DNA from: an uncultured Candidatus Poseidoniales archaeon
GTDB lineage: Archaea; Thermoplasmatota; Poseidoniia; Poseidoniales; Thalassarchaeaceae
Assembly: GCA_964570065.1 (NCBI GenBank)
Contig: CAZMVZ010000001.1
Span: forward strand, 41,652-105,651
DNA: 64,000 nucleotides
Direction: 5' to 3'
The notes beneath the pieces were generated by a model. The model saw only the letters and a program-made list of their open reading frames with translations, ran no database searches and had not been told where the DNA came from. The position numbers and the translations under genes were made by a program. Positions 31,797 through 56,171 of the stretch are shown in pieces. Positions within the stretch are counted from its first letter, which is position 1; every line of letters starts with the position of its first letter.

Positions 31797-34879
<3,083 letters not shown>

Positions 34880-34997
34880 TGCCAATCCGTCCCGACGGAA
34901 GGACATGAATATCACCCCTCCGGGCTCAATCAATCCACAGATTTTCCACTCCCACAATCGTGCGAAGGTTCATCCTCCGATTTTCACTGCCAGAGGC

Positions 34998-37002: not shown

Positions 37003-37080
37003 TGAAAAATAGCACCAATCTATGGGTTATCTTTCCAATCCGTTCTACGAACGGTTAAAACAAGCGTTTTGGTCGGCGCG

Positions 37081-40000
37081 ATGCTGAGTCATTGGCAAAT
37101 AGGTCCGGTGGATGGGATGGAACAGGAGAAAGATACCCTTCAAGTTGTTCAATTCAACAACCTTGCCGCGCCTGTTGCTATCACTCTGGCACTACTTGGT
37201 TTGACTATCGTCGCTTCCACTCTGGAAGGCAGAGAAGTAGGCGGCGATTTCCTCTATACAGCCATCCTGATCTCACTATCAGTGTTAATTCCAGCATGTA
37301 TTGGCAGGTCTTCCTGGCTGATTCCTCTTGATTCCGGATCCCTGCGTGTCGGCGCTATCACTCTCGCGGTATCGCTCATAGGAATAATCGCAAATTCAGC
37401 AGATCCAGAAAATTTCAACCATATGTTCGTTGCCACATTCGTCTTCGTTGGATTCGCTTCAGCCGCCTTAAACGAATCAGAACGATTTGAAGAGTCTGCA
37501 ACTCTCCTCTCAATAGTTCTGGGGATGCGTCTTGCGGCATTCTATGCAGGAGGACTCATCATCGCTCAAAGTGACTCTCTTGCTGTGATAGACACCGTCA
37601 GGGAAGCAATCGGAGCTGCATTCTTCTCATTCTGGCTCTCTTCAATATCACTCGGTTTCCTTGTGATGGTCGGACTAAGGGGGGCAATCGAGAATCGGGG
37701 CAAGGGGAATCTAATGGCCAATCTTCCAAACATTAGGGAGAATCCAGAGGTGGGAATATACGCGTCACTAGTATTCGCTAGTTTCTTGGTTCCACTAATC
37801 TGGATCAGCCAGATTGACTCTCTCCAGGATTTCTCTCAGCAGAACCACATTGGATTGGCATGGGCATCATTCTCTGCATTAGTGATCTTCATTCATGCAT
37901 TCTTCAGAGCAGAGGGATGGCACGTATTGGGTGCACTTCTGGCAGTGAACTGGATTCTTTACTCCATTGGCCATATTCATGAGATTGGTAACGAACTACC
38001 ATCCTTATTCTCCGAGGACGGATTCATTGGCTCCTTCACCTGGTTCTTCCTGTGGTTCTGGATGACCTTCTTCACACTCTTCTTTGCTTCCAGAGGGGTT
38101 TTCGGAGATATCGCCCCTAGAAGGGAGAGGAGTGGATTCAGAGTCTGGTGGGATGTCAACTCCTACGTAGTGATGGTTACTCTTGCCTTCTTGATAGCAC
38201 TCATCGTGAGAACCGCATGGAACGTAATCCCGGCAATGAATGCGAATGGAACCGGGCTATGGGACATGACCGGTGGTTCCGATCCTTGGTACATGAAGAG
38301 AGTAGTGGACTACGTTATTGCTGAGAGGAGCCATCTGATTTTCGATCATGATAGGGCTTACCCAGCCGGGGGGATTAATCCAAGGCCCCCGCTCTTCTCT
38401 TGGTCCCTAGCACTAGGTGGTTTGGCTCTCTCTTGGATCCTTGAGATCCCAGCCGACCAAGCAGTGTGGTGGTCCATGTCTGCTCTACCAGCAGTCTACG
38501 GCGCCCTCATAGTCCTCCCAATTGCTGGGATAGCCTCACGCGCACACAGCAGGAGGGCTGGCATAATTGCAGCATGGCTGATAGCACTAATGCCGGGTCA
38601 CATGAGCCGCTCAACATTCGCGATGTCGGACCACGACTCCTTCGCAATGCTTTTCCTGGCCATAGCATTCTACTACTGGATCAGGGCGATCGGGCATATC
38701 GATCACAATAGAATCTTCAAGTCAACTAGCACAAACCCTCTGTACATTATTGCAGGAATGAGGGAGACGTGGAAGAGGAACCCTTCATTGATGGCGAATG
38801 CATCAATGGCCGGAATCGCTTTCTCAATCATGGCCCTTGGGTGGAAAGGATTCGTTTACGGCCCGGGAATCCTCTTCCTTGCTTACTCATTCCAAGTTGC
38901 GATTAACATTTTCAAAGGAAGGGACAGCCTTCAATTCACCTCTGCGGCTCTTCAAATGATGCTAGTCGCAATCCTCATTCCGACTCCATTCTATGCCTGG
39001 CCGGGGATGAATCTCCTTTTCGCACCCAGTGGAATGCAGCCTATGTTCTACATAATCGGGTTCACATTCGCGATGGGATGGGTGTCTAGCTCATTCAGGG
39101 ACAAGCCTTGGCTGTTGGTAGTCCTAGGGGGAAGCGCATTATTCGGTTCGATACTCGCTTTGCTATACATTCTCCAAGTTAGGGATCTTTTCAATGGGTG
39201 GGACATTCTCTTTACCGGTGGTTTCTACTTCTCCAAGAACAAGATATTCGGCACTATCGGTGAGGCTCAAGCTCCCGAGAGGGGCGTTCTTTTCGCATCC
39301 TACGGCCCCATAGTGGCTCTAATCGCAATAGGTTGCGCATTCTTGCTACTGTGGAGGGGCAGTAGGAAGAACAAGTCAGATCTAACTCTTCTTGGACTCT
39401 GGACCATTATCGCCACATACATGGCATGGTCAGCCGGCCGTTTCATAATCAACGCCACCCCAGTAGTCGCAGTAGTGGGTGGAATCGGTATTTCCATGCT
39501 ATGGGGGTCAGCAAGTTTGCCCGCCTTCACCAAGGTATGGAGGAACTCCGGGATCGGAACTCCAAGGACCCGTTTCAAGTCCCTATGGCCGGCCACCAAA
39601 GCACGTCCAGGGGTTCCGGCCATGGTCATGGTTTTGCTCCTCATCACATCTCAACACGCGACTTATGGGATCGATGCTGGAATCCCAAGAGGTGATCAGT
39701 CTGCGAACGAAATCGACCAGAGCCTATACGACATTGTCCCGGACATACTGAGGCAAGACTTGCTAGGTCTCTTTTCAGTCATGAATAGCGATACGTACGA
39801 CCAAAGCGATTCTGGTCTATGGTACATGGGTACTTTCGGCCCAAGCTTCAATTCACAGGGCTGGAACGAGGCATACGACTGGCTCTCCCAGCAAGATAGC
39901 GAAACACCATTCAGCGATCGTCCCGCCTTCGTTTCCTGGTGGGACTATGGTTTCCAAGCCCTGGCTTCCGGACAGCATCCCACGGTTGCCGACAACTTCC

Positions 40001-43000
40001 AGTCTGGAATACCAAACAGTGGGGCAATGCTACTATCAGGGGGCCAAGAAGATACACTATCTCTGTTCATAACAACCCTGGCGATGGGAGACAAGAGCAT
40101 CAACAACGGCCAACTCGGTGAATCCTTCCTATCCGTCCTAGAGGGCCACATGACTCCAGAACAGGTCCAGGAGTTCGAAGCCATCACTTCCAACACCAAC
40201 AAGGGGTTTGTCCAAGACCGCCTGATGGCCGTAGTTGCGGAATATGGAGATGCCGAATTGCTCCAGGGTGAACCCCTGGACAGCAATGGGCTGACATGCC
40301 CCGATCCTTGTTCGGATACCTATGTTGTACTGGTAAACGGGGAACCATTCGGTGAAGCCACCACCAATTCATCCGAGGCAATGGTAATCTTCGATCAGGC
40401 TCGCGGGTCATCATCCGAATTCGAATTGGCAGAATTCGATGACGCAAGTCACTACGATATGGCAGGATACCGATATACCAGAGACATCATTGACGACTAC
40501 GATGATCTCTCGACCGCGCTCCACAGGACCAATGCCAGGTTCGGATTGGCTCGTGCGTTCCTAATAACTGCCTTCTCGCTCGATGATCTCGTACAGATAT
40601 ATGATGGAATCTCATCAATCGACACGTATGAGGTCTCAGATTACGAAGAGTCGCATGGGAGCACGACCTCGAGGAACCACGAGATTCGGTACTTCGCTGT
40701 AGATAACCGGCTATATCCACTTGGAGGGATGTACTACCAGGACTATCAGTCGTACCATAGGGGGCAGACTACTGGAATCTTCCATGCTCCAACCCATCTT
40801 TCTGGACTCGACATCGACTCATACATTACAACAACTTACGAAACAAACCAGGGAGATCATACGCCTGAGGAGTTCCAAAGCACGTACTTAGAGGACCTCA
40901 AGGCTCAGGCTTCCGGAGCATCTACTGCCGAGGACATGATTCAGATGACGGATATGAACTATCAGCATCTGGACAGTTTCTTCGAAACGATGATCGCAAG
41001 GACATATGTCGGCTACGGGACTTCCACGTTGGGGCTTCCATCGATAAGCGGCCAAGTAGGGGATGCCGACACGCCTTCTACTTGGATTCTACCAAACTCA
41101 ATTACGGGAACCCCAGGGAGCTATTTGCAGGGGGCAATGGCACTTCCAGGGGCAATGATGAACCACTTCGTACTATCCAACTGGTACGATCCGACAAACG
41201 GTACTTCCTGCGAAGAAATTCAGATTACAGGCTCTGCTTCAACAGTAGCGGGCAGTTCTCAATTGTCGGACGTCTCACTCTATTCAGATGACAGCCTCTC
41301 ATCAGGATGGTCCCAGATTCAATCAGGAGGCCCTTGGAAGATGTCCCAAGTGGAAGAAGGGGTCATTCCCATGAACGCTTCAACTACCAATTATGACCCC
41401 GACGAAGAGACGCTCTCGATCACTTCAGCAGCTTCGTCTTCTGCTAATGATACTGAATTCACCCTAACAGGAAAGGTGGACAAGTACTGCGGCTCGATTT
41501 ATGACTCCAACAGAAATGTAAAGATTCTGAAGTACTACAGCGGCGCAACACTACAGGGCACTGTCTCGCTAGAAGGAGTCGGACCAGTGCCCAATGCAAG
41601 GATCCTAATCGAGAGAGACGCTTTCAGCGGAGATGAGTCTGCGGACGAAGACGGCAATGTCGTCGACAACGACTCCAGAACATACTGGATACCCATTGGC
41701 AGTACACAAGCAGACGAGGATGGCCACTTCTCTTTCACCGCTCCAGCTGGAAAGATCCGCGTCTCCGCTTTCACAGGCGATCCAGACTTGGATGCGGCCA
41801 GAACATCACTGTTATCAGGTTCCGCCAACCTGATGTCAGAACTTTTCTCAGAGACATCCCAGAACCGCGCCGTAAACCCAGTAACTGGAATCCTGGGCAA
41901 CGTCTACGGGTCAACATGGCTCTCTGAGACGATAGTGAACATTTCTGGGTCGGATGGACACAGCAATGGGCAATCCGTCATCGAGGCACCAATATCGGTA
42001 TCGCCATCAACCGCTTCAGGGATACTCTCATGGTCTGGCGAGCTCGATTTCGACGGTGACCCTGTTCTTTCTGCCAACATTACCCTCACTCCTTCCTCAG
42101 AAGAAGTAGCAATCCAGCCCTATGAGGTCATTACTTCTGATGGGGGCATGGTGGGGGAAGACCTGAGATTCAGTGGTACCGGAGAAGTCACATTCCTAGG
42201 GGAGGGGACTATGGAGAGCATGGGGGCAGTATCTGTTTACGACTTCACTGGCACCCATACTCAAGCTGTATTCGATAACCACAGCATTACTGGAGAAGGG
42301 CAATTCTCTGGAAAGGGTATGATCGATGGCACACTATCTGGCGACTTCCCAGATTGCTCTGGCCATTCAGTACCCGAGGGTTCTGATGCATGCATTAACG
42401 AAGATGGCTACTATCTCTTGGAAGGCATAGCAAACGGATCTGGAAAGTTCACATCACACGGAGTCAGTGAATTCACCAGGGAACTCTCCCAGGCAACATT
42501 CATCGGTTCAGGCAACTTTGCCACGTCCCCTTCAGATGACCTTGCCACATTTGGGACAATTAATGGAACTGGGATTTTCTCGGGGCACGGATCGTTCAGT
42601 GGGTCTATGGTACGACCAGGTTCCTTCCACATCGTCGACGCCCTCCCTGGCGAGTACGTCGTTTCAGTGGATTTCGGAACCGGGGATCCTGTGGTGATCC
42701 CGCAACCATTCGTAATCCCCCTGTCTTCTTCTGAGATTCAGACTCCTGTATCTATCACTGGAGGCGCGATCAAGGGTACTGTATCGATTTTCACGGGTAG
42801 GCCATTGTCGAGTGAGGTTTCGATTTTCTCAATCAATGGCTCTAGTGAGGATTCCAATGAACAGTGCCAAGGCGTCATCACTCAACCATGTTTCGTCACT
42901 CCTGACGAAAGCGGTTCTTTCGAGGTCGGACCAATAGTCCCAGGCTCTTACATAGCAGAGGTAGATATCGATGACGACGGATTCCCTGAGATCTCCCATG

Positions 43001-46000
43001 CATTCGCGTTCGAATCCGGATTGGCATCTCTAGTGTCCTTCCCTTCTGAAGTACCTCAGACATCAGATATCACATTCACACTCTCCGATGATGGAACCAG
43101 TGTTGATGACCTTCAATTGCAATTTATACCCGAGGATCTTTCCAGAAGTGAAGTAACGGTAATGTTTGACAATGAGTCAAAGACTTACCATGCCGAGTTG
43201 AACCCGGGCAATTGGATACTCAATTACACACTTAGCGATGAGAAGCAACTGTGGCAGCGCATATCTATCGGGAGTATCGATGTAAGCGACTCTTTCGAGT
43301 TCCTGGTTAGCCAGGTCGTAAGTGGGGTTGTGATCGACTCAGTTAAGGGTGACGAAATTTCAGATCCACTGTTGTCCAGAGTGACCAATCAGGAGGTTTT
43401 GTTCCAATGGCAGGGCTTCACTCTAAAATCCGTAACCGACTCATTCGGAGAATTCAGCGTAATCCTCCCTCAAGGTGCCTTTGTCCATGCAACCGTGGAG
43501 AGAATGGTCGGAGCAGGCGGATTCTTCTCCAACGGCACGAGCTTCCAAGTGACAGATTCGATGGAAAATATCACAATCCAACTCACTGACTCAACAATGG
43601 TCCTCGGAGAAGTAAGTCTCAATCGTGAAGGAAACACGTACAATCAAGGATTCTCCGGATGGACTCCAGTATTTGCCAAAGCAAACAACTTGGACGGAAC
43701 AACAGACGCCGTTTGGAGGGAGGAGGTGGATGACCTCGGGCGATTTGACATGCTGCTGCCTCTGGGCAACTGGTCTTTCACATTGGAAGCCGGCAGCGAG
43801 ATGGCTGCCAATGCCGTAGTGAAGGAGATCAACACCACATCAGAGCCGATGGTCGAGCTCCTGGTACTTCCAACAAATATTACTGTGGAGATAGATTTCT
43901 TCATCGATCATTTAGGCGATAACAACGCATCCAATGGGACTCCGGTTTCCTATCCATTCGAGATCAAGCCACTGTCGCCCAATGGTGCCGGTTACACGGT
44001 CCCAAGAGATGGTTCTGAGTGGACTCAAACAGGATTGGCGGAAGTATCTCTTGAACCGGGAAGGTACCGAATAGTCGTCGAGAGGGCCAACTCTTCAGCA
44101 GACGATCCATTCGACACCCTATATGACACAAATGACATCTTCGAAGTCGAGATCGGGTCTTCTACAGTCAAGCGTTCTGTAGGGTTCGAACCAAGATGGC
44201 TAGTTAACATCACATTCAGGAATGAGAGCGGCCAATTACTAGACAACCACGAAGTTAAACTCGAGAATGTCGAAAATGGTTGGATACAAACTTACATGAC
44301 CAACGAAGATGGTGTGTTGGTAGAGTACATTGAAGAGGGAGATTGGATCGTAATTGTAGATGAATTCGAGACAAACTCGGGAGTGTATGAGGGGCTGCGA
44401 AGGTCGATTTCTACTTCTCAATCATCGGCAGGATCCAGGTCGAACTTCCAGACAGCCGAACTTGCATTAGTTACTGTGACCCTCCAATCAACTTCGGATG
44501 TGGCAGCACCCGAGTTGGTTGATCTCACGATATCTTCACAAGAAGGCCTTGGATCATTCGTAAGTTCGATCGGAGGATTTGATCAACCACTGGAAATAAG
44601 GCTTGTACCCGGGTTCTGGAACGTTGAGATTAACCAGACCAACCAAGACGGCATCATGACTCTATTGGAGAATTCTTCGTTGGTTGAATCAGGTGTCACC
44701 GTAGGACCCAATCACCAAGTATTCCTGACCGTACAGAAACTAGTCAGCCTTAGTGGCAAGGTTTTCTGGGACCTCGATGATGATGGTGCCCCTGGTTTCT
44801 CAGAGGGCCTTTCTAATGCCTCTGTAAACATTACCGGAGACCTTGACTCTCCAACTCATCACTTAATATCAGATAATGACGGAGTCTGGTCCACATTCCT
44901 TCCCGTCCAAAGCTCATGGAACATCACCGTAGAGAGGGAGGGCTTCGGTACGCAGACTTCTCCAGTCCAAATCGGGGAAACCTCGGTTACTGAAAATATC
45001 GAGATTTCAGCCGGCGAGGTTGAAATATCCGGCAGCATTTCGTATCCCGACCAGACTTGTATTTCCAGCGGTGAGTGGCAAGTTCAGATGATTCCATCTC
45101 ATGGAATTTCAAGAGAACGCGTCACAGTACCTGGAAACGCTCTGGGTGAGTGGTCTGCCATGATCCAACCAGGCAGTTGGGTGGCAATGGCAACATCTAC
45201 ATCTGAGGCTTCCGAATGCATCGATCTGATTTCGATCGAACCTCTGGAAGTTGGGGTCGATGGGGGCTCAGTCGAATCAGAACTAACAGTTGGAGGGACT
45301 CTCAGGCTTGAGACCAGTTGGTTGGACTTCGATGGTAGTGCTCACGATCTTACCGAGGTTGAGGATTATGACCTAGTCATAGAATACGGCCCGATTTCAT
45401 GGTCCGAGGAGCTAGGAAGCGATGGAGTCCTGAATCTGTTAATAATGCCGGGAACGGTACAAGCCTCCAGTACTTTCGAGTTGAACGAGGGCGTTCGGAA
45501 CGTGTCCTATTCCGGCGGAAAGGGAATCTCAATCAGAGCAGGACAGGTAAGTCCGATGAATACCCTGAGCATCGATAGGGTCTCCAAGCAGAGCGTCACT
45601 ACAACAGTTCAAGGGCTCGATAGGGTCGAGGTTCAAGAGGTCGATACCACTTGCACCAACGACGATGACGGTGACGGCGTAATCAATGGCGAAGATGCAT
45701 TCCCGACCGACCCCACCGAAAGCTCGGACAATGACAATGACGGAAAAGGTGACAATCAAGATCCTGATGACGACAACGATGGCGATCTTGACGACGATGA
45801 CGAATTCCCTCTGGGGCAAGGGCTGCCTACAAACTCAGCAGAGGGCTGCAAGTACCAGAACGCTGCGTTCAATGTCTCAGTCGAATACGAGGGGCACAAC
45901 TCCTTCGACGAATACACGGTCGTCGGGACAGTCCCCAGTGCCGACGGGGTGGATTGGAGTGTCCAGTTCCAGAATTCATCAGGGGAATGGTTGGATTCCT

Positions 46001-47001
46001 TAACTTTCGACTTAGGCCTGACCGATTCAGACCTTACTGAACAAATCAGTGTTCGCGTGGTTCCGGCCAATGTCGGTGTTGCACATCACTTCCCAGATGG
46101 TCACTTGGTCCTAATCAAGATGTCAACCGATCAAGGATATTCAACCCAAGTAGAATTGGGGGTGGATGTTCCAGAATACAACGGAATTGAACTCAATGAA
46201 CCAGAAAACCTGTTCTTCAGCAGAGAGGACACCACCATTACGATTAATATTCCATTCAAGAACACTGGTAACTCAGACGAGTTGTTCTACTTCGAATTCG
46301 ACAGTTCAGAGTGGTGGCAATTCGCTGGACCTACAACCCAACCGGCATCCCCATTCTCCGATGGTTCCGCCACCTTCACACTAGTCAGGCCCTCTGAACC
46401 GGAACTGCCTTCCCCCTATGCCGAAGAAATCACATTCACTGTTTCGGATCAGGACAACAATACTTACTCGGGCTCAACTATGGTGGAGACAGACTCGCCA
46501 GTTCTCTCCATAGTGGGAGATACGGCAAGGATCCTCGGAGGCAATAAATTCGCTTCTTATGGCCAAATAGAGAGTTATTCCGTGAATATCTCCAACAGCG
46601 GGAATGTGGATGCTGAGGCTGTCATCTTAGTGGCTACTCTGTGTTCCGACATTCTTTGTGAAAATGAGCTAGGCGTCAACTCCACTTCCAGTGGCTCAGT
46701 GTCAGCAATGAGCGAATCAACATTCTACATCAACATGGACTACACCCAGTTTACCGAGTCCAAGAATTATTGGATAATGTTCTCAATAGAGGGTGAATTG
46801 ATAGATGGAAAGTCAGAGCCTTGCAGCTTGACATTGAAGTCAGATGGAAAGGCATCCTGCGTCTTCGAGGCTCAGCTATGGACCAGCTCCGAAGAGAATG
46901 ACGATCTGAAGTACTTGGCATACGCATTCCTGATAATGCTAATTGCAGCACTTCTTTACTTTACTAGAAGGCCGGGTAGACGAGTCAGCGCCCCGTTCTA
47001 A
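37081..47001 (+). CDS. aglB: Giant AglB/STT3-type oligosaccharyltransferase fusion (~3300 aa)
   Basis: STT3 first-loop motif DPWYMKR…FDHDRAYPAGG…PPLF, TIxE (TIGE) motif, WWDYG catalytic motif, an Arg-containing last TM, then ~2300 extracellular residues with an acidic D-x-D-x-D-G cluster and a terminal TM + RRPGRR tail. Domains are listed in the separate finding. ATG at 37081 (the track's 37069 is a TTG). Confidence 0.85.
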   Translation: MLSHWQIGPVDGMEQEKDTLQVVQFNNLAAPVAITLALLGLTIVASTLEGREVGGDFLYTAILISLSVLIPACIGRSSWLIPLDSGSLRVGAITLAVSLIGIIANSADPENFNHMFVATFVFVGFASAALNESERFEESATLLSIVLGMRLAAFYAGGLIIAQSDSLAVIDTVREAIGAAFFSFWLSSISLGFLVMVGLRGAIENRGKGNLMANLPNIRENPEVGIYASLVFASFLVPLIWISQIDSLQDFSQQNHIGLAWASFSALVIFIHAFFRAEGWHVLGALLAVNWILYSIGHIHEIGNELPSLFSEDGFIGSFTWFFLWFWMTFFTLFFASRGVFGDIAPRRERSGFRVWWDVNSYVVMVTLAFLIALIVRTAWNVIPAMNANGTGLWDMTGGSDPWYMKRVVDYVIAERSHLIFDHDRAYPAGGINPRPPLFSWSLALGGLALSWILEIPADQAVWWSMSALPAVYGALIVLPIAGIASRAHSRRAGIIAAWLIALMPGHMSRSTFAMSDHDSFAMLFLAIAFYYWIRAIGHIDHNRIFKSTSTNPLYIIAGMRETWKRNPSLMANASMAGIAFSIMALGWKGFVYGPGILFLAYSFQVAINIFKGRDSLQFTSAALQMMLVAILIPTPFYAWPGMNLLFAPSGMQPMFYIIGFTFAMGWVSSSFRDKPWLLVVLGGSALFGSILALLYILQVRDLFNGWDILFTGGFYFSKNKIFGTIGEAQAPERGVLFASYGPIVALIAIGCAFLLLWRGSRKNKSDLTLLGLWTIIATYMAWSAGRFIINATPVVAVVGGIGISMLWGSASLPAFTKVWRNSGIGTPRTRFKSLWPATKARPGVPAMVMVLLLITSQHATYGIDAGIPRGDQSANEIDQSLYDIVPDILRQDLLGLFSVMNSDTYDQSDSGLWYMGTFGPSFNSQGWNEAYDWLSQQDSETPFSDRPAFVSWWDYGFQALASGQHPTVADNFQSGIPNSGAMLLSGGQEDTLSLFITTLAMGDKSINNGQLGESFLSVLEGHMTPEQVQEFEAITSNTNKGFVQDRLMAVVAEYGDAELLQGEPLDSNGLTCPDPCSDTYVVLVNGEPFGEATTNSSEAMVIFDQARGSSSEFELAEFDDASHYDMAGYRYTRDIIDDYDDLSTALHRTNARFGLARAFLITAFSLDDLVQIYDGISSIDTYEVSDYEESHGSTTSRNHEIRYFAVDNRLYPLGGMYYQDYQSYHRGQTTGIFHAPTHLSGLDIDSYITTTYETNQGDHTPEEFQSTYLEDLKAQASGASTAEDMIQMTDMNYQHLDSFFETMIARTYVGYGTSTLGLPSISGQVGDADTPSTWILPNSITGTPGSYLQGAMALPGAMMNHFVLSNWYDPTNGTSCEEIQITGSASTVAGSSQLSDVSLYSDDSLSSGWSQIQSGGPWKMSQVEEGVIPMNASTTNYDPDEETLSITSAASSSANDTEFTLTGKVDKYCGSIYDSNRNVKILKYYSGATLQGTVSLEGVGPVPNARILIERDAFSGDESADEDGNVVDNDSRTYWIPIGSTQADEDGHFSFTAPAGKIRVSAFTGDPDLDAARTSLLSGSANLMSELFSETSQNRAVNPVTGILGNVYGSTWLSETIVNISGSDGHSNGQSVIEAPISVSPSTASGILSWSGELDFDGDPVLSANITLTPSSEEVAIQPYEVITSDGGMVGEDLRFSGTGEVTFLGEGTMESMGAVSVYDFTGTHTQAVFDNHSITGEGQFSGKGMIDGTLSGDFPDCSGHSVPEGSDACINEDGYYLLEGIANGSGKFTSHGVSEFTRELSQATFIGSGNFATSPSDDLATFGTINGTGIFSGHGSFSGSMVRPGSFHIVDALPGEYVVSVDFGTGDPVVIPQPFVIPLSSSEIQTPVSITGGAIKGTVSIFTGRPLSSEVSIFSINGSSEDSNEQCQGVITQPCFVTPDESGSFEVGPIVPGSYIAEVDIDDDGFPEISHAFAFESGLASLVSFPSEVPQTSDITFTLSDDGTSVDDLQLQFIPEDLSRSEVTVMFDNESKTYHAELNPGNWILNYTLSDEKQLWQRISIGSIDVSDSFEFLVSQVVSGVVIDSVKGDEISDPLLSRVTNQEVLFQWQGFTLKSVTDSFGEFSVILPQGAFVHATVERMVGAGGFFSNGTSFQVTDSMENITIQLTDSTMVLGEVSLNREGNTYNQGFSGWTPVFAKANNLDGTTDAVWREEVDDLGRFDMLLPLGNWSFTLEAGSEMAANAVVKEINTTSEPMVELLVLPTNITVEIDFFIDHLGDNNASNGTPVSYPFEIKPLSPNGAGYTVPRDGSEWTQTGLAEVSLEPGRYRIVVERANSSADDPFDTLYDTNDIFEVEIGSSTVKRSVGFEPRWLVNITFRNESGQLLDNHEVKLENVENGWIQTYMTNEDGVLVEYIEEGDWIVIVDEFETNSGVYEGLRRSISTSQSSAGSRSNFQTAELALVTVTLQSTSDVAAPELVDLTISSQEGLGSFVSSIGGFDQPLEIRLVPGFWNVEINQTNQDGIMTLLENSSLVESGVTVGPNHQVFLTVQKLVSLSGKVFWDLDDDGAPGFSEGLSNASVNITGDLDSPTHHLISDNDGVWSTFLPVQSSWNITVEREGFGTQTSPVQIGETSVTENIEISAGEVEISGSISYPDQTCISSGEWQVQMIPSHGISRERVTVPGNALGEWSAMIQPGSWVAMATSTSEASECIDLISIEPLEVGVDGGSVESELTVGGTLRLETSWLDFDGSAHDLTEVEDYDLVIEYGPISWSEELGSDGVLNLLIMPGTVQASSTFELNEGVRNVSYSGGKGISIRAGQVSPMNTLSIDRVSKQSVTTTVQGLDRVEVQEVDTTCTNDDDGDGVINGEDAFPTDPTESSDNDNDGKGDNQDPDDDNDGDLDDDDEFPLGQGLPTNSAEGCKYQNAAFNVSVEYEGHNSFDEYTVVGTVPSADGVDWSVQFQNSSGEWLDSLTFDLGLTDSDLTEQISVRVVPANVGVAHHFPDGHLVLIKMSTDQGYSTQVELGVDVPEYNGIELNEPENLFFSREDTTITINIPFKNTGNSDELFYFEFDSSEWWQFAGPTTQPASPFSDGSATFTLVRPSEPELPSPYAEEITFTVSDQDNNTYSGSTMVETDSPVLSIVGDTARILGGNKFASYGQIESYSVNISNSGNVDAEAVILVATLCSDILCENELGVNSTSSGSVSAMSESTFYINMDYTQFTESKNYWIMFSIEGELIDGKSEPCSLTLKSDGKASCVFEAQLWTSSEENDDLKYLAYAFLIMLIAALLYFTRRPGRRVSAPF

Positions 47002-47022
47002 TACTACTTGCCTCAGCGCACA

Positions 47023-48279
47023 ATGGGGACAAACATGCGTGGAATCTCACGTCTCGAATTGATGCCTGAACCTGGAGACCCTAGTCTACTTACAGCCGTA
47101 GACAGTGATGCACCCGGCTATCCAGGAGAGGCCTATGGCATCAGTGACGAAGAGGCTAGGAAGCTAAGGTGGCCAATGGGGCCACTTATGAGGTTCTTAT
47201 GGCCTTGGGGAGCAGTCGGATTCTCCGCAATAGTTGTCTCTATTTTGCTCCTATATCCCTCGATATACTCACTTATTGGCGAGGTTCTTGATTCGGAGTG
47301 GGCCTTCGAAGATAGCGGCATCAGGGATCTACAGGAATCTGGAAGCCTAGGTGAAGGAGTCAGAGTATGTATGGTTGACACCGGAATAGACATCTCTCAT
47401 CCAGACCTATCGCATCTAACATTATCTGGATTTCGTGACTTCTATAGCGAAAAAGACTCTCCAGTCAGAGACATCGGAACAAATAGTCACGGAACTTTGA
47501 TGGCGGGACTTCTTGCTGCCAATGGCTCATTCACTGGTGCTTCCCCAAGCGTTTCACTTTCGATTGCGATTTCTCTCGGGCCAGACGGAAAGTCTGCAAA
47601 TGAGAGGATGGTCTCCCAAGCGATTAGGTGGTGCCGCATTTCTCAGGAATCTGACATAATTTCTCTAAGTCTGGGAACTGCTCCCGGATCTAGCTTCTCA
47701 GCTTCATCTGACACCCTTGATGCCGTAAGAGAGGCATTAGGCGATGGGATTTTCGTAATCGCAGCCGCTGGAAATAGTGACCCAAGGCAGAACCTCTCCG
47801 ACGTCTCTTCCCCTGCTAGTCTATCTGGTGTGATTGCAGTTGGGGCACATGATAGAAATGGGGATCCGTGGGTTGACAGTGCTGAAGGTGCCAAAAACGA
47901 TCCAGAAACTGGTGAGGAACGAATATTTCCCAACCAGAAACCCGAGATCGTAGCCCCCGGTGTCGATCTATGGTCTTGCAGAGACAGTGGCCGTGACCCG
48001 CCATACGCATTCTCAACCGGTACCAGTGATTCTACGGTATTGGTTACAGGGGCCCTCGCCTTGATCCTCTCAGTGTATCGTGAGGAAATTGCGGGAGAAA
48101 ACGGAATCATCGACCAACATGAAATGGACTTAGTCAAGGTAGCGCTTGCAAACTCGGCACGAACCGACTCAAGCCAATCTGAAAGCCACGATTCGAAGAA
48201 AGGATACGGTCTCCTTGATGCCCAAGAATGGTCTAGACAAGTAGAAATTGAATTCGGTATCAACCAAGAAAACATATGA
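47023..48279 (+). CDS. Membrane-anchored subtilisin-like serine protease (S8 family)
   Basis: Catalytic triad motifs VCMVDTGID (Asp), HGTLMAGLLAANG (His), GTSDSTVLVTGALAL (Ser). N-terminal TM helix. The ATG lies 22 nt after the aglB-fusion stop. Confidence 0.85.
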   Translation: MGTNMRGISRLELMPEPGDPSLLTAVDSDAPGYPGEAYGISDEEARKLRWPMGPLMRFLWPWGAVGFSAIVVSILLLYPSIYSLIGEVLDSEWAFEDSGIRDLQESGSLGEGVRVCMVDTGIDISHPDLSHLTLSGFRDFYSEKDSPVRDIGTNSHGTLMAGLLAANGSFTGASPSVSLSIAISLGPDGKSANERMVSQAIRWCRISQESDIISLSLGTAPGSSFSASSDTLDAVREALGDGIFVIAAAGNSDPRQNLSDVSSPASLSGVIAVGAHDRNGDPWVDSAEGAKNDPETGEERIFPNQKPEIVAPGVDLWSCRDSGRDPPYAFSTGTSDSTVLVTGALALILSVYREEIAGENGIIDQHEMDLVKVALANSARTDSSQSESHDSKKGYGLLDAQEWSRQVEIEFGINQENI

Positions 48280-48345
48280 ATTGACGATAATTGACGAAAC
48301 TCCTTGTCCCTATGGTTAAATTGTCTAGATGTAGTCCGATGGATT

Positions 48346-51300
48346 ATGGCGCGGGAAGAAAAATTGAGGTCATTCTCATTAACAGGACTATTCTTGTTGA
48401 GCATATTACTTTCATTGGCCTTGCCAGCAGGTACTGTTTCCGCATCAAACGAGACAACAACGGGGACAATTACCGGTACTGAGACTTGGGCAGGCGTACA
48501 CACCCTTACCGGAGATGTCACGATAGCCCCCGGTGCAAAATTGATCATTAATCCAGGGGCGACGATTGAGTTCCCCAACGGAACCCATCTGGATGTACGG
48601 GGGAGCCTGTGCGCCGGCGTCTCTTCATGTGGTGCTTCTTCGAACGCTGGGCCTGCAATGAGAATAACCCTGAGGTGGAGTGAACCCCTCAATTCGAGTG
48701 CTATAGGGGAATGCTATGGAATGAGTTCTGGCAACCAAGAAATATGGATAGATGACCCTTCATGCAGCGAGGGCGTGCTAATGAGGAGTTCGATAGATCT
48801 TTCTGAAACAGGCCTCAGATATGTCACATTCGATAGTGCTTGGGGGATTCCTCAGTATGTCTCTGCAGTGGGCGAATTCCGATATGGGGCCCTAGTTCTA
48901 GATGGAGCTAGCCCAACTCTTACCGAACTTTCTTTCAATCAGATAAACACCTCCAGTGTCCTGACAACCAACCTCGCTCAACCAACTTTCAATGGGGGGG
49001 AATTCGTCGTAGGGGCCGATGCGAGTAGGGGCATCGTTGGAGCAGCATTGCAGATTTACTCCTCTGGATCCTCAGTAAGCCCATTCTCTCTGTCTGATAT
49101 TTCACTCACAGGAACTGACAATGGATGCGGTAATAGAGATGGGGGGAGGCACACAATTTGGGCCGAGGACTCATTTATCGAGATAGATAACGCTGAAATC
49201 TCATCAGGAGATTTTGGAATCGGGCTTTGGACATCAGCAGGAAGCGTGACAAACACTCAGATAAATGTGAACTGTAACGGAATCGATCTAAATGGAAAGA
49301 AGGCAGTAGGCGGGACTTCATTCGATTTCGATATCTCTAACAATGAAATTACTACGGCCGACGGAGCAGGAGTTTTTGCATCAGCCGGGGCACTAGTGTA
49401 CTTGGTTGACAACGATATTGGTGGAGCAGCATCTGGTTCCGGAATAGCTGTTTACAATAGCGAGGCCCACATTCACGAAAACGAAATTGGACCAATAGGG
49501 GGCTACTTTGGATTGTGGCTGGGTGGCTCGTACGACGTAATCGCTGAGAATAACTCGATTTTCGACACCACCCTAACCCCAGTGGTTGCTGGGATGTACT
49601 CATACGCCATTCAAGCAGCCTCTAGGCTATACCTAGCAAACAACTCAATCTCCTATGATGGTACTGGGACCTGCAGTAGTGAAACCAATTGGGGGGGAGA
49701 TTTTTCTTGTCCAGTCTTGCATGCATACGTGACAGGCGTAACCATGTATGACAACATCATCACTGCGGGTGGTACAGCCGATGGGATTCGAGCAGTGGGG
49801 TCTCTGTTGGATATTCAGAGGAACTCATTTGATGTGCAAAAGACTGGTGCTGTGATCAAGAACTACGACAGCGGTTATGCCGAATCCCAGCAATTCGGGT
49901 CACTAGCATACTTCTCTGAAAACGACTGGAACCAGGCCGAGACAGTGTACAACGTGACAAAAAGCTCCGTTACTGCCCAGTCAGAGTACATACCCTCACC
50001 TCCCAGCGGGGAATACCCAGTCCGCCTATCATGGCCAGACCAGGAGGCTTGGCCAGACAATGAATTCCAAGGTGCGATTATCCCAACACCAGTAAAGGAC
50101 TGCAACAATTGCCAGAACATGACGCCGAGGAACTTCCCATTGGGTGTCAGCATGGATAACAACTCAACGGTATTTACATTTGCAGATTTGACGAACCTGG
50201 ACTTGTCCAAGGTCAAGATTGCAACACAGCCAACCCACTTCGCAGTACAGGTCAGCAGAGCCGAACTCGTCCGATTCCAGGCACTAATTGGCGGTGAAAA
50301 GGTAAGCGATGCATTGGTCATTGTGGAGGATGCACTCGGTAACGACCTGTATCGTGTAAAAACTGGTGGCGATGGTTTCACTCCATGGGTCGCCCTCCCA
50401 TCTAACTTTCACCTCGACTTCAGAGGACTTGGAGGAGGAGATAACCCGGATGGGTTTGCGGATGATGAGTACGAGGACTCTTGTTCAGACGGGATTGACA
50501 ACGATGGCGATCTTACCATCGACATCGCAGATTCCAGTTGTGATTATTCTGCAGGAACTAGGGAACTATCACTTTACAGATATACTGCCTATAGATTTGG
50601 ATATGGCTACTACTCCGGGCAGTTCACCCTTGAGGAGAACTCGCTCGAGGAGACTGCACACCTTGAGAACGAAGCTCCAACGGTGATAGTTACCGAGAAT
50701 GATGGACACTCATTCAGAAGAGTGGTCAACATCACTGGAAGCGCTCACGACGGGACATTGGCAAACAGTTACCTGACTGACGAGAGGGCCCAGTGGGACC
50801 AAGGTGGCTATGTTCATGCCGTCCAAGTGAGGAACCCATTCACCGGTTCTTGGGAGGATGCCGAATTGGCGATTGATACTAGCGGTGCAGATGAGGGCGA
50901 GGTGACACGCTTCAACAGGCCTTTCAGCTCGTGGTACTACAATATTGACATGACGGGACTCGCAGGTGAAGGCGATTTCACATTCGAATTCAGGGCATTT
51001 GATGGGATAGATCACAGCCCTGTCGTTTCACGAACAATCAAACTCAATACTCAACCCCCCAGCATTTTCGTTACCACACCCAGCTCATTCTCATCTCATG
51101 ATGAGGGTTCGGTAGTCTTCGATGGCTATTCCCAGGATCCCTACGGATGTCCGGACAATTGCAACACCGACATTGGTCTAGTATACATGCAGATTTCGGG
51201 ACCAAATTACCAAGTTACTAGCCCAGTTGAGACTAATTCCGATGGAACTTGGGATTGGGAGTGGGACTTCAGCACCCGGCCCAGGGAACTTACGACTTAC

Positions 51301-52608
51301 ACCTTCACAATTTGGGCATCTGATTCAGATTTTTGTAATGGAGAAGTGGACGAGTGCCAGCCAGTAGTTCTGACCCTAACAATCGATAACAGGAATAGCC
51401 AACCCACAATTAGCGTCAATCAGCCATTTTCAGGAACAAGAATTTCCTCCTCATTGGATACTGCTCTAACCGGGGTGGCTAGGGACTTCGACGGAGGGGT
51501 TACAAGGGTAGATCTGGAAGTAAAGGACGTATCAAATGACTATGTTTCAGTTTTCGAAACCAGCACCAGTGAATTTTCTGAAGATGGAATCTGGGAGATT
51601 GAGTGGGACACGACACAACTTCGTCATGATGCGGAATATCTGCTAAGATTCCGCTCGTATGACGGAATTGACTACAGCAGCTGGACCGAAGTAACCATTG
51701 TGGCCGACAATCCACCAAATGCAGGGAATAATCAACCCGAATTCGATTCATCCGGCTGGCAAAGTGAAATCACTCTTTATTGTGACTCAGAATCAAACTC
51801 TGTCGACAAGTGCACCACAGTGGAGATAGATCTGAAGGAGTTTTTCTCCGACGCAGACAACGACATACAGTTCATCTCCGTTTACAACGACACATCAATC
51901 GACTCGGACGATAGGCACGCTCTTGTCGTCGGTGTCGGAACAGATGGAATTGCTCGTTACGACCCCGCAGACATGTTGTTTTTCGACGATGACATGGAGT
52001 CTTGGACTCTGAATAATGTGATTTTCATCGCCACCGATGCATGGGATTCTCGAATCAACTCAGATCCTGTCAACTTCAGAGTCGTCCCCCTTCAGTTCAC
52101 GATTCAGGAGCCCGAGCAGTCTTGGGTCGAAGAAGATGAAATGGCAATATATTCCGGCATCGGACTTCCCGGTAAGCAAGTTTCTGTTTTGATAGATGGT
52201 AATCCAGTCAACAACACAATTGTCTCTGAAGACGGAACATGGGAGTTGGGTATACCGGCCTCTAGGATTAAGGGAGACTCATCAATACCAAAATTCACTT
52301 ATGCAGGCCAAACCACAGAAGTTAGCGCGATAAGCAAGGGAGAGCCAACGCCTGAATCAACAAACTGGGGAACGATTGGAGCAGTTTCTGTTTTGGCCAT
52401 ACTGTCACTGGCTGCTCTTGCTTACTTCACTGGATTCATAGGAATTGAGATTGATGAAGAAGATGAGTACAAGACCCCTGCCCAAATACCGAAGAACTAC
52501 GGTGACGAGGAAGAAGAGAGTTCTCTGGAGAGGTATGATGACCACCCCGGTTGGCTTTGGGATGCAGCTTCCGAGGAATGGGTCCCAGATCCGGATTTCG
52601 AAGAATAA
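48346..52608 (+). CDS. Large surface protein (~1420 aa) with right-handed parallel beta-helix (PbH1) repeats, Ig-like domains, C-terminal TM anchor and acidic tail
   Basis: Signal peptide (LTGLFLLSILLSLALPAGTVSA), repeated NN-I/GG beta-helix rungs (…ISNNEITTADGAGVFASAGALVYLVDNDIGG…), C-terminal TM (VSVLAILSLAALAYFTGFIGI), and tail IDEEDEYKTPAQIP…DPDFEE. Confidence 0.8.
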   Translation: MAREEKLRSFSLTGLFLLSILLSLALPAGTVSASNETTTGTITGTETWAGVHTLTGDVTIAPGAKLIINPGATIEFPNGTHLDVRGSLCAGVSSCGASSNAGPAMRITLRWSEPLNSSAIGECYGMSSGNQEIWIDDPSCSEGVLMRSSIDLSETGLRYVTFDSAWGIPQYVSAVGEFRYGALVLDGASPTLTELSFNQINTSSVLTTNLAQPTFNGGEFVVGADASRGIVGAALQIYSSGSSVSPFSLSDISLTGTDNGCGNRDGGRHTIWAEDSFIEIDNAEISSGDFGIGLWTSAGSVTNTQINVNCNGIDLNGKKAVGGTSFDFDISNNEITTADGAGVFASAGALVYLVDNDIGGAASGSGIAVYNSEAHIHENEIGPIGGYFGLWLGGSYDVIAENNSIFDTTLTPVVAGMYSYAIQAASRLYLANNSISYDGTGTCSSETNWGGDFSCPVLHAYVTGVTMYDNIITAGGTADGIRAVGSLLDIQRNSFDVQKTGAVIKNYDSGYAESQQFGSLAYFSENDWNQAETVYNVTKSSVTAQSEYIPSPPSGEYPVRLSWPDQEAWPDNEFQGAIIPTPVKDCNNCQNMTPRNFPLGVSMDNNSTVFTFADLTNLDLSKVKIATQPTHFAVQVSRAELVRFQALIGGEKVSDALVIVEDALGNDLYRVKTGGDGFTPWVALPSNFHLDFRGLGGGDNPDGFADDEYEDSCSDGIDNDGDLTIDIADSSCDYSAGTRELSLYRYTAYRFGYGYYSGQFTLEENSLEETAHLENEAPTVIVTENDGHSFRRVVNITGSAHDGTLANSYLTDERAQWDQGGYVHAVQVRNPFTGSWEDAELAIDTSGADEGEVTRFNRPFSSWYYNIDMTGLAGEGDFTFEFRAFDGIDHSPVVSRTIKLNTQPPSIFVTTPSSFSSHDEGSVVFDGYSQDPYGCPDNCNTDIGLVYMQISGPNYQVTSPVETNSDGTWDWEWDFSTRPRELTTYTFTIWASDSDFCNGEVDECQPVVLTLTIDNRNSQPTISVNQPFSGTRISSSLDTALTGVARDFDGGVTRVDLEVKDVSNDYVSVFETSTSEFSEDGIWEIEWDTTQLRHDAEYLLRFRSYDGIDYSSWTEVTIVADNPPNAGNNQPEFDSSGWQSEITLYCDSESNSVDKCTTVEIDLKEFFSDADNDIQFISVYNDTSIDSDDRHALVVGVGTDGIARYDPADMLFFDDDMESWTLNNVIFIATDAWDSRINSDPVNFRVVPLQFTIQEPEQSWVEEDEMAIYSGIGLPGKQVSVLIDGNPVNNTIVSEDGTWELGIPASRIKGDSSIPKFTYAGQTTEVSAISKGEPTPESTNWGTIGAVSVLAILSLAALAYFTGFIGIEIDEEDEYKTPAQIPKNYGDEEEESSLERYDDHPGWLWDAASEEWVPDPDFEE

Positions 52609-52663
52609 TGTAGATTCCAAGTTCTACTAACATTTGTATATTGAGTGAGATAGTGTTGAGTAT

Positions 52664-56053: not shown

Positions 56054-56171
56054 TTATTGCTATTTTCAAACATCAGAAACCATTCTAGGCCCTTCTAATG
56101 ACATATGTCCGAACGACGCTCCATCATCATGATAAATCTCTGAACCCGGGATTTTGCATAGAGGTGGGCGG

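Follow-up and report, generated by a model that had tools for sequence, protein, structure and literature searches.

A structurally characterised relative of the protein reported on here is the long archaeal enzyme AglB-L of Archaeoglobus fulgidus (AfAglB-L; 868 amino acids [aa]; structures 3WAJ, 3WAK, 5GMY and 7E9S), an oligosaccharyltransferase (OST) with a GT-C core of 13 transmembrane (TM) helices. In eukaryotic OST, luminal scaffolding is provided by separate subunits (ribophorins, OST48 and others) beside STT3A or STT3B. Archaeal S-layer and surface glycoproteins, such as that of Haloferax volcanii, are acidic and rich in N-X-S/T sequons, contain a Ser/Thr-rich stretch and are anchored in the membrane at the C-terminus. 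The uncultured Poseidoniales rank among the most numerous archaea in surface seawater. Here we describe a gene, designated giant aglB, in a DNA stretch of 64,000 nucleotides (nt) from an uncultured Candidatus Poseidoniales archaeon (contig CAZMVZ010000001.1, positions 41,652 to 105,651), which is called the window below. In the literature (7.7 million PMC papers and bioRxiv) we found no description of a giant AglB in Marine Group II (MGII) or in Thermoplasmatota; the one related mention of aglB was in a transcriptomic study.

A preliminary description of the window had placed a complete STT3/AglB catalytic core and a very long extracellular region of beta domains in the same frame. Our analysis supports this, and the core is apparently catalytic. 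Giant AglB is, in the reading that we favor and hold to be rather probable as a whole, an active AglB with a fused, doubly anchored and probably N-glycosylated structural rod. The earlier suggestion of a glycosyltransferase tethered to its own stalk comes close to it. With residues counted from the ATG at 37081 (3,306 aa), gene and product are organized as follows:

37081..47001, + strand: complete giant aglB gene (open frame, identical database protein, orthologue lengths)
37081..38115, + strand: N-terminal module with ~10 TM helices, aa 1-345; N-terminus predicted inside (hydropathy and loop charges)
38116..39570, + strand: 13-TM STT3/AglB catalytic core, aa 346-830
39571..41115, + strand: external catalytic domain, aa 831-1345 (alignments, structure model, 3VU0/3VGP match around WWDYG)
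41116..41457, + strand: Ser/Thr-rich linker, aa ~1346-1459 (poorly conserved, gapped in up to 76% of orthologues)
41458..41787, + strand: first beta-sandwich (KILKYYSGATLQGTV...), aa 1460-1569 (profile alignment; highly conserved)
41788..42777, + strand: Gly-rich region, aa 1570-1899 (five conserved xGxGxF(S/T)GxG copies)
42778..45627, + strand: array of ~10 beta-sandwich modules (~90-95 aa each), aa 1900-2849 (motif periodicity, hhalign, Pfam)
45628..45867, + strand: acidic Asp-rich insert with TSP3-like DxDxDG repeats, aa 2850-2929 (visible by eye)
45868..46893, + strand: ~3 further beta-rich modules, aa 2930-3271 (NTGNxDE / NSGNVDA motifs, weakly DUF11/CARDB-like)
46906..46998, + strand: C-terminal TM anchor (aa 3276-3294, nt 46906-46962) and basic cytoplasmic tail RRPGRRVSAPF (hydropathy)

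The motifs on which the assignment to STT3/AglB was originally based are present and had been placed correctly. DPWYMKR starts at nt 38281 (D401, nt 38281-38283), TIGE corresponds to aa 725-728 (nt 39253-39264) and WWDYG to aa 953-957 (nt 39937-39951), and the postulated Arg-bearing TM helix contains R787 (nt 39439-39441) within SAGRFIINATP. DHDRAYP (D422/D424) is a separate conserved motif of external loop 1 and not the second metal-binding motif, which is SDHDSF (D517-H518-D519, nt 38629-38637) and had not been named in the preliminary description. In the profile alignment with AfAglB-L, the motifs correspond to each other as follows:

AfAglB-L GGNDPWY (D47): aligned with GGSDPWY (D401)
AfAglB-L GFNDHH (D161-H-H163): aligned with MSDHDS (D517-H-D519)
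AfAglB-L TIAE: aligned with TIGE (E728)
AfAglB-L QNRF (R426): aligned with AGRF (R787)
AfAglB-L WWDYG: aligned with WWDYG

A hidden Markov model search, which the preliminary description had named as a check of the core, gave a match of Pfam STT3 (PF02516) to aa 399-635 with 42.8 bits, compared to a cutoff of 24.5 (E 6.4e-11). The single sequence matched AfAglB-L (3WAJ) with E 1e-9, the family profile matched it with E 2e-38, and the AglB C-terminal-domain structures 3VU0 and 3VGP matched the region around WWDYG. The NCBIfam model TIGR04154 (archaeo_STT3) aligns with aa 364-986 at 165.5 bits, which is below its cutoff of 450 bits; giant AglB is a relative and not a member of this archaeosortase A-associated subfamily. 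The metal-binding, TIGE, R787 and WWDYG residues are invariant among 45 MGII sequences. With shorter relatives from outside MGII (class ii, see below) included, each of them is still either invariant or conserved to at least 90%. Over 97 sequences of both length classes, T and E of TIXE are invariant, and WWDYG is at least 90% conserved overall.

Structure modeling of aa 340-1400 by AlphaFold2 with the 45 MGII sequences only resulted in a predicted local distance difference test score (pLDDT) of 54, and this model was discarded. With a mixed alignment of MGII and class-ii sequences (aa 340-1345), a pLDDT of 86.9 and a predicted template-modeling score of 0.88 were reached. Foldseek searches with the latter model retrieved AfAglB-L first (E 2e-19), followed by STT3A/B, yeast Stt3 and PglB. 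The fold is that of a GT-C enzyme with 13 TM helices plus an external C-terminal domain. The external domain holds a conserved IRYFAVDNRLYP...GIFHAP block, a kinked helix FFETMIARTYVGYG and a confidently modeled alpha/beta insert (aa ~989-1179, nt 40045-40617). According to the profile alignment, the equivalent of canonical AglB-L spans, with inserts, aa ~346-1565, and this part is a full AglB-L-type enzyme with the STT3 fold. Judged by its catalytic residues, giant AglB is very likely an active OST.

The gene lies in one frame (37069..47001, + strand), which is open from a TTG at 37069 and comprises 3,310 codons, in agreement with the single open reading frame (ORF) of ~3300 aa reported before. 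In addition to the ATG at 37081, the ATG at 37117 is a candidate start, and it is the start of the 100% identical database protein P0001 (3,294 aa). The best 120 homologues among 5.8 billion proteins all have lengths of 2,696-3,338 aa (120/120); they are labeled as Candidatus Poseidoniales or marine group II/III euryarchaeote and as 'STT3 domain-containing protein' or 'dolichyl-phosphooligosaccharide-protein glycotransferase'. We also scanned one genome per GTDB species and kept the best 80 loci, one per genome. All 80 belong to Poseidoniales, from both Thalassarchaeaceae/MGIIb and Poseidoniaceae/MGIIa. The window is 93% identical to the metagenome-assembled genome (MAG) SP192 and 72% identical to a MAG labeled MGIIb-O3, and its host is a Marine Group IIb (Thalassarchaeaceae-like) archaeon. 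Of the 57 species-level Poseidoniales loci with a complete ORF, 56 encode 3,124-3,310 aa, with WWDYG at residue 933-1021. Orthologues of similar length, for which a search in related MAGs had been recommended, are thus present throughout Poseidoniales, and the giant form is the universal form of AglB in this order. The sole short 'complete' orthologue (DAUV01000054.1; 1,809 aa) ends 38 nt before the contig end and is probably an assembly-end error, not a truncated gene. A typical MGII giant aglB with purD upstream was also detected in JAOMAZ010000025.1, deposited as 'Deltaproteobacteria bacterium AH-558-G13', which is probably a mislabeled or contaminated single-cell assembly.

The alignment of the MGII orthologues is collinear, and its gaps are confined to two insert sites. 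Ratios of nonsynonymous to synonymous substitution rates (dN/dS), calculated according to Nei-Gojobori against a 93% identical relative, were 0.094 for the N-terminal module, 0.029 for the TM core (the lowest of all regions), 0.050 for the external catalytic domain and 0.066-0.084 for the extension; the same pattern was obtained with two further relatives at ~88%. Uniform orthologue length, collinearity and purifying selection over the whole length exclude an artefact, as the preliminary description had argued, or a recent accidental fusion, and it is practically certain that giant aglB is a real single gene. Horizontal transfer was considered and rejected, since the GC content of the gene (0.49-0.52) is the same as in the remaining window.

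The extension had been estimated to ~2300 aa. It is indeed long, but canonical AglB reaches to aa ~1565, and ~600 aa of this estimate belong to the usual periplasmic domain of AglB-L. This leaves an addition of ~1,700 aa, apparently arranged in ~17 diverged beta-sandwich modules. The addition is preceded by the linker, the least conserved and most gapped stretch of giant AglB, and by the first beta-sandwich (aa ~1477-1565), which in the profile alignment corresponds to the beta-sandwich at the C-terminus of AfAglB-L (chain residues ~770-834), is conserved also in class-ii proteins and contains a weak CarboxypepD_reg match (aa 1490-1563, E 1.2e-3). In the Gly-rich region, which has no Pfam match, the xGxGxF(S/T)GxG copies are located at aa 1690-1850 (e.g. 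GEGQFSGKG and GTGIFSGHG) and might form a small repeat or solenoid of an unrecognised type.

In the array, each module is closed by a PGxY/W-type motif with a spacing of 88-98 aa, from residue 1856 to 2790. Comparison by hhalign revealed that ~10 modules of ~95 aa and the first, AglB-L-like sandwich are mutually related (probability 50-94%). This kinship is visible only by profile-profile comparison: BLASTP detected no internal repeats and no resemblance to the other giant ORFs in the window, the individual modules matched almost nothing in Pfam, and a single-sequence PDB search of the whole extension gave nothing meaningful. Carboxypeptidase-regulatory-like domains, which had been predicted for the extension, are supported for two modules that reach Pfam CarboxypepD_reg (PF13620; in the whole protein above the cutoff at aa 2575-2635, 36.7 vs 32.3 bits), while the remaining modules are related at the profile level only. 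Since the first module aligns with the AfAglB-L sandwich and the modules are periodic and related to each other, the extension appears, at the sequence level, to have arisen by repeated duplication of the terminal beta-sandwich of AglB-L.

The cluster previously assigned to TSP3 does consist of acidic DxDxDG repeats (aa ~2850-2929). However, it is a non-conserved, lineage-specific insert, which is missing in more than half of the orthologues and has no Pfam TSP_3 or TSP3_bac match, a weak NCBIfam MtsC-type match (E 0.0094) being the only one. For the modules downstream of it, Pfam matches to DUF11 were obtained in orthologues and to CARDB in class-ii proteins. The predicted C-terminal TM anchor was found at the very end of the protein, where the R..APF terminus is nearly invariant in MGII. 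Anchoring by PGF-CTERM/archaeosortase was rejected, because the C-terminus (...SSEENDDLKYLAYAFLIMLIAALLYFTRRPGRRVSAPF) contains no PGF ahead of the helix. With the TM core on one side and this anchor on the other, the external chain is tied to the membrane at both ends.

At the opposite end of the protein, an additional membrane part precedes the core as had been described, but with ~345 aa and 10 TM helices it is smaller than the ~370 aa and ~11 helices given originally. Its first 250 aa are weakly conserved, whereas its last two helices (aa ~280-345) match the core in conservation and probably pack on it. Ten TM helices and an N-terminus inside mean that TM1 of STT3 is kept in its normal orientation, and the predicted topology of 10 + 13 + 1 TM helices (~24), with basic loops and tail inside, is self-consistent. 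No match to this module was found in Pfam and PDB, and a duplication of the STT3 TM core was ruled out (hhalign probability 0.4%). The module is specific for MGII; class-ii relatives lack it, their core starting at residue ~5-137.

The composition of the extension resembles that of a surface glycoprotein. It is acidic (D+E 15.5% vs K+R 3.6%), and in the window protein it contains 33 N-X-S/T sequons in comparison to 19.1+-3.9 in shuffled sequences. In 61 orthologues the mean is 2.13 sequons per 100 aa, which is 1.9 times the shuffled value, and at least 10 sites are kept in at least 85% of them (N1620, N1733, N1785, N1828, N2151, N2282/2285, N2381, N2518 and N2965). The extensions of 80 class-ii proteins reach 2.2 times the shuffled value, and the catalytic external domain is depleted of sequons (0.47 times). 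The strongest enrichment in the window was found in another ORF (18108-27068, + strand), with 78 sequons vs 28.5+-5 expected, which argues that sequons are under selection in the surface proteins of this organism. Based on its acidity, its roughly twofold excess of sequons and the many conserved sites, the extension itself would be a glycoprotein with fair probability.

When 1.84 billion cluster representatives were searched exhaustively with HMMER, using aa 340-1340 as query, 779 hits were obtained, 237 of them below 1e-30, and two groups stood out. One group is the MGII class with 3,150-3,230 aa and 45-67% identity. The other, large group (class ii) comprises proteins of 2,000-2,775 aa with 28-37% identity from 'Thermoplasmata archaeon' and 'Candidatus Thermoplasmatota archaeon' MAGs (e.g. 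MFA5772382.1 and MCL5785875.1), whose annotations vary between carboxypeptidase regulatory-like, GT39 and OST. When the set of 5.8 billion sequences was searched with a profile for class-ii relatives, almost exclusively MGII proteins were returned. Class-ii proteins share with those of MGII the conserved external blocks, the first beta-sandwich and a long array of CarboxypepD_reg/CARDB-type domains, their extensions are also sequon-rich, and all of them end in a C-terminal TM helix with a basic tail. They differ by the lack of the 10-TM N-terminal module and by a shorter extension, in which CarboxypepD_reg, CARDB, SdrD_B and faint NOMO1-like domains are found. Some of them (P0174 and P0214) carry an extra block of several hydrophobic helices, inserted behind the last TM helix of the core and ahead of the external WWDYG domain, another way of adding membrane helices than the N-terminal module of MGII. 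The architecture, which the preliminary description had considered unusual, thus goes far beyond canonical AglB, but it is not a single case: it is order-wide and has cousins of 2,000-2,800 aa across Thermoplasmatota.

Following the established mechanism of the family, giant AglB would transfer a lipid-linked glycan to the Asn of N-X-S/T sequons at the outer face of the membrane. D401, D517 and D519 would hold the metal, E728 of TIXE would be located on the mobile external loop 5, and WWDYG would bind the Ser/Thr at position +2. In evolution, the terminal beta-sandwich of AglB-L would have been expanded into a long rod, and MGII would have added the 10-TM module. The rod would be N-glycosylated, either by the catalytic domain of its own chain or by one next to it, and could serve as a length-defined glycoprotein rod or arch of the envelope, i.e. 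as a spacer or scaffold beside the site of glycosylation and not as an adhesin. By analogy we consider such a structural role possible, although we would not call it probable.

Several points weigh against the reading of giant AglB as an active enzyme with a glycosylated rod. The DK/MI motif of the Ser/Thr pocket is not identifiable by sequence alignment to solved AglB structures, and a single-sequence PDB search of this region gave nothing meaningful; the conserved broken helix FFETM(I/V)ARTYVGYG (H959-962 and H965-968 in the model) is the candidate for it. Most modules of the extension have no Pfam or PDB match, and the proposed beta-sandwich rod is suggested by periodic motifs, two Pfam matches and profile comparisons. 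Further, the conservation of sequon positions partly reflects inherited relatedness, and the structural role is put forward by analogy with S-layer glycoproteins and with the eukaryotic protein NOMO.

The gene neighbourhood bears on the alternatives. The neighbours of giant aglB are largely housekeeping genes (aRF1, ArgRS, the 2-oxoacid dehydrogenase complex, XPD helicase, GDH, CarS and PurD), and no agl glycosyltransferase cluster was found near it. Downstream, a conserved block (47008-55192, + strand) begins with the following genes:

47008..48279, + strand: S8 subtilase with one TM helix (aa 63-85) and the catalytic domain predicted outside, directly downstream of giant aglB
48304..52608, + strand: 1,434-aa beta-helix/Big_7 surface protein with a C-terminal TM helix and an acidic tail, third gene of the conserved block

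The block is closed by a gene for an 842-aa HTH-AAA-TPR (STAND/MalT-like) protein. Its order (S8, beta-helix, AAA/TPR) is the same in loci at 45-52% identity, and the S8 and beta-helix genes are directly downstream in 61/61 Poseidoniales loci having downstream sequence. The S8 linkage persists in MGIIa, where the upstream CarS gene is inverted, and the S8 subtilase is a possible partner of giant AglB. MGIIb aglB was among the transcripts enriched when the genus was active in the field (log2 fold change 2.05; PMC9723583), its identity with the giant gene being assumed. The window contains further ORFs for large proteins. The sequon-rich ORF 18108-27068 encodes 2,986 aa with a transglutaminase-like core, MG2, CarboxypepD_reg and TSP3 fragments and DUF4129. 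ORF 56154-61883 (+ strand; 1,909 aa) encodes a large secreted or surface protein with bacterial TSP3 repeats, and the TSP3 regions of these two are mutually similar. Another large secreted or surface protein with weak NPCBM_assoc/FixG_C Ig-like matches is encoded by ORF 15078-18032 (+ strand; 984 aa). Finally, ORF 33164-34957 (- strand; 597 aa) has no Pfam match, shows an N-terminal signal-like helix and a C-terminal TM helix with an acidic tail, and in 60 related loci it is conserved at this position, upstream of CarS.

The constant presence of the S8 gene, even where CarS is inverted, raises the possibility that giant AglB is a precursor polyprotein. Cleavage in the linker (aa ~1346-1460), plausibly by the downstream S8 protease with its single TM helix and outward catalytic domain, would yield a canonical-sized AglB (with the N-terminal module) and a separate surface glycoprotein of ~1,850 aa with a C-terminal anchor, which would be produced side by side, and in a constant 1:1 ratio, with its glycosylating enzyme. 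The poor conservation of the linker fits this idea, as does the resemblance of the extension to archaeal surface glycoproteins (acidic, sequon-rich, C-terminal anchor). However, the first module after the linker belongs to canonical AglB-L, so that a cut in the linker would strip the enzyme of a normal AglB domain. In addition, a cleavage motif is not known, the fused architecture occurs at two class-ii loci without an S8 neighbour, and the S8 linkage is weak evidence because gene order is broadly conserved in Poseidoniales, including purD. Taken together, we consider a polyprotein unlikely. Less likely still is an adhesin or substrate-capture arm, by which the extension would attach to particles, polymers or other cells, with the OST as no more than a base in the membrane. 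Adhesins often contain long arrays of beta-sandwiches, orthologues occasionally show Pfam matches to SdrD_B, SpaA, Big_1 or DUF11, and MGII genomes, the window included, hold several other giant surface proteins. But Pfam scans revealed no lectin, carbohydrate-binding module or other binding domain, the double membrane tether limits the reach, and internal repeats of recent origin are absent. Across the order the length hardly varies, with a dN/dS of 0.07-0.08, whereas adhesins are typically repeat-variable and fast-evolving. The term 'adhesin-like' used in the preliminary description is therefore not supported, as no adhesion or carbohydrate-binding domain was found and the extension has a fixed length and a low dN/dS.

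The preliminary description had also considered an OST repurposed as a glycan-binding module, and a dead STT3 could likewise be reused as a lipid-binding membrane base. The low archaeo_STT3 score (165 vs 450 bits) and the unrecognisable DK/MI motif would agree with loss of activity. This is disfavored by the invariance of all tested catalytic motifs in MGII, by their conservation over both classes and by the strongest purifying selection acting on the core (0.03); the very high fold match to active OSTs and the sequon enrichment of the window's surface proteins, which argues that N-glycosylation is in use, also speak against it, and we regard a dead enzyme as very improbable. For an assembly, frameshift or gene-fusion artefact of two or three genes, the unusual length is the only argument. 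The same collinear ORF, with gaps at the two insert sites only, is found in hundreds of independent contigs, single-amplified genomes and MAGs, and purifying selection acts across all junctions, so that the probability of an artefact is negligible. The reading as an active AglB with a fused rod is the one against which we compare the known systems in the following.

In addition to the 13-TM GT-C core, giant AglB has the metal-binding D, DxH/DxD, TIXE, Arg and WWDYG equivalents of AfAglB-L, the external domain of which ends in the beta-sandwich corresponding to aa ~1477-1565. It is ~3.8 times longer with 14-18% identity, D replaces H at the third position of the metal motif, and AfAglB-L lacks the 10-TM module, the inserts in the external domain, ~1,700 aa of beta modules and the second, C-terminal anchor. 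With S-layer and surface glycoproteins the extension shares acidity, sequons, a Ser/Thr stretch and anchoring. It differs from them in the absence of a PGF-CTERM/archaeosortase signal and in being covalently continuous with an OST. No sequence similarity to these glycoproteins, such as that of Haloferax volcanii, was found, although no search aimed at it was made.

NOMO (nodal modulator), like the rod proposed for giant AglB, is a chain of prealbumin/Ig-like beta-sandwiches that ends in a single C-terminal TM anchor, but it is not fused to an enzyme. NOMO1 was described as a ~24-nm rod of the 'beads on a string' type with at least 8 domains, the length of which sets the intermembrane spacing of the endoplasmic reticulum (PMC8327139). 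On the scale of NOMO1, ~17 modules at ~3 nm each would give the rod of giant AglB a contour of ~50 nm and a reach of ~20-30 nm. A class-ii-dominated profile matched human NOMO2 (BOS complex, 9C7V) with E 1.6e-21. The match of the MGII-only profile was weak (E 3.8e-4, no stretch passing alone) and the single window sequence gave no NOMO match, and for these reasons we treat NOMO as an architectural analogue; the similarity possibly reflects the widespread CarboxypepD_reg-type domain alone. It is tempting to speculate that Poseidoniales have no OST other than giant AglB and that this protein also bears load in the cell envelope, as a NOMO-like, self-glycosylated rod that is anchored at both ends, spaces the membrane and an outer layer, and forms an envelope-assembly module together with the subtilase and the beta-helix protein of ~1,430 aa, but in this full form the proposal is improbable. 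Bolder still would be the assumption that the OST-plus-Ig-rod of Thermoplasmatota is evolutionarily related to the translocon-associated NOMO of eukaryotes.

The sequences are already public under generic or wrong names, and the architecture is a new variant within a well-known enzyme family, not a new system. Its description is nevertheless important for several reasons. Throughout the order, AglB of Poseidoniales exceeds every characterised OST three- to fourfold in size, and proteins that are mostly labeled 'hypothetical', 'GT39' or 'carboxypeptidase regulatory-like' gain an annotation. The relationship of the modules suggests an evolutionary route, in which the terminal beta-sandwich of AglB-L was expanded. 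Testable hypotheses also arise on enzyme-linked envelope building or cis-glycosylation. Last but not least, giant AglB carries its large external domains inside the same polypeptide as the STT3 core and is thus a natural case of an external OST accessory structure within the catalytic polypeptide, where eukaryotes use separate subunits beside STT3A and STT3B.

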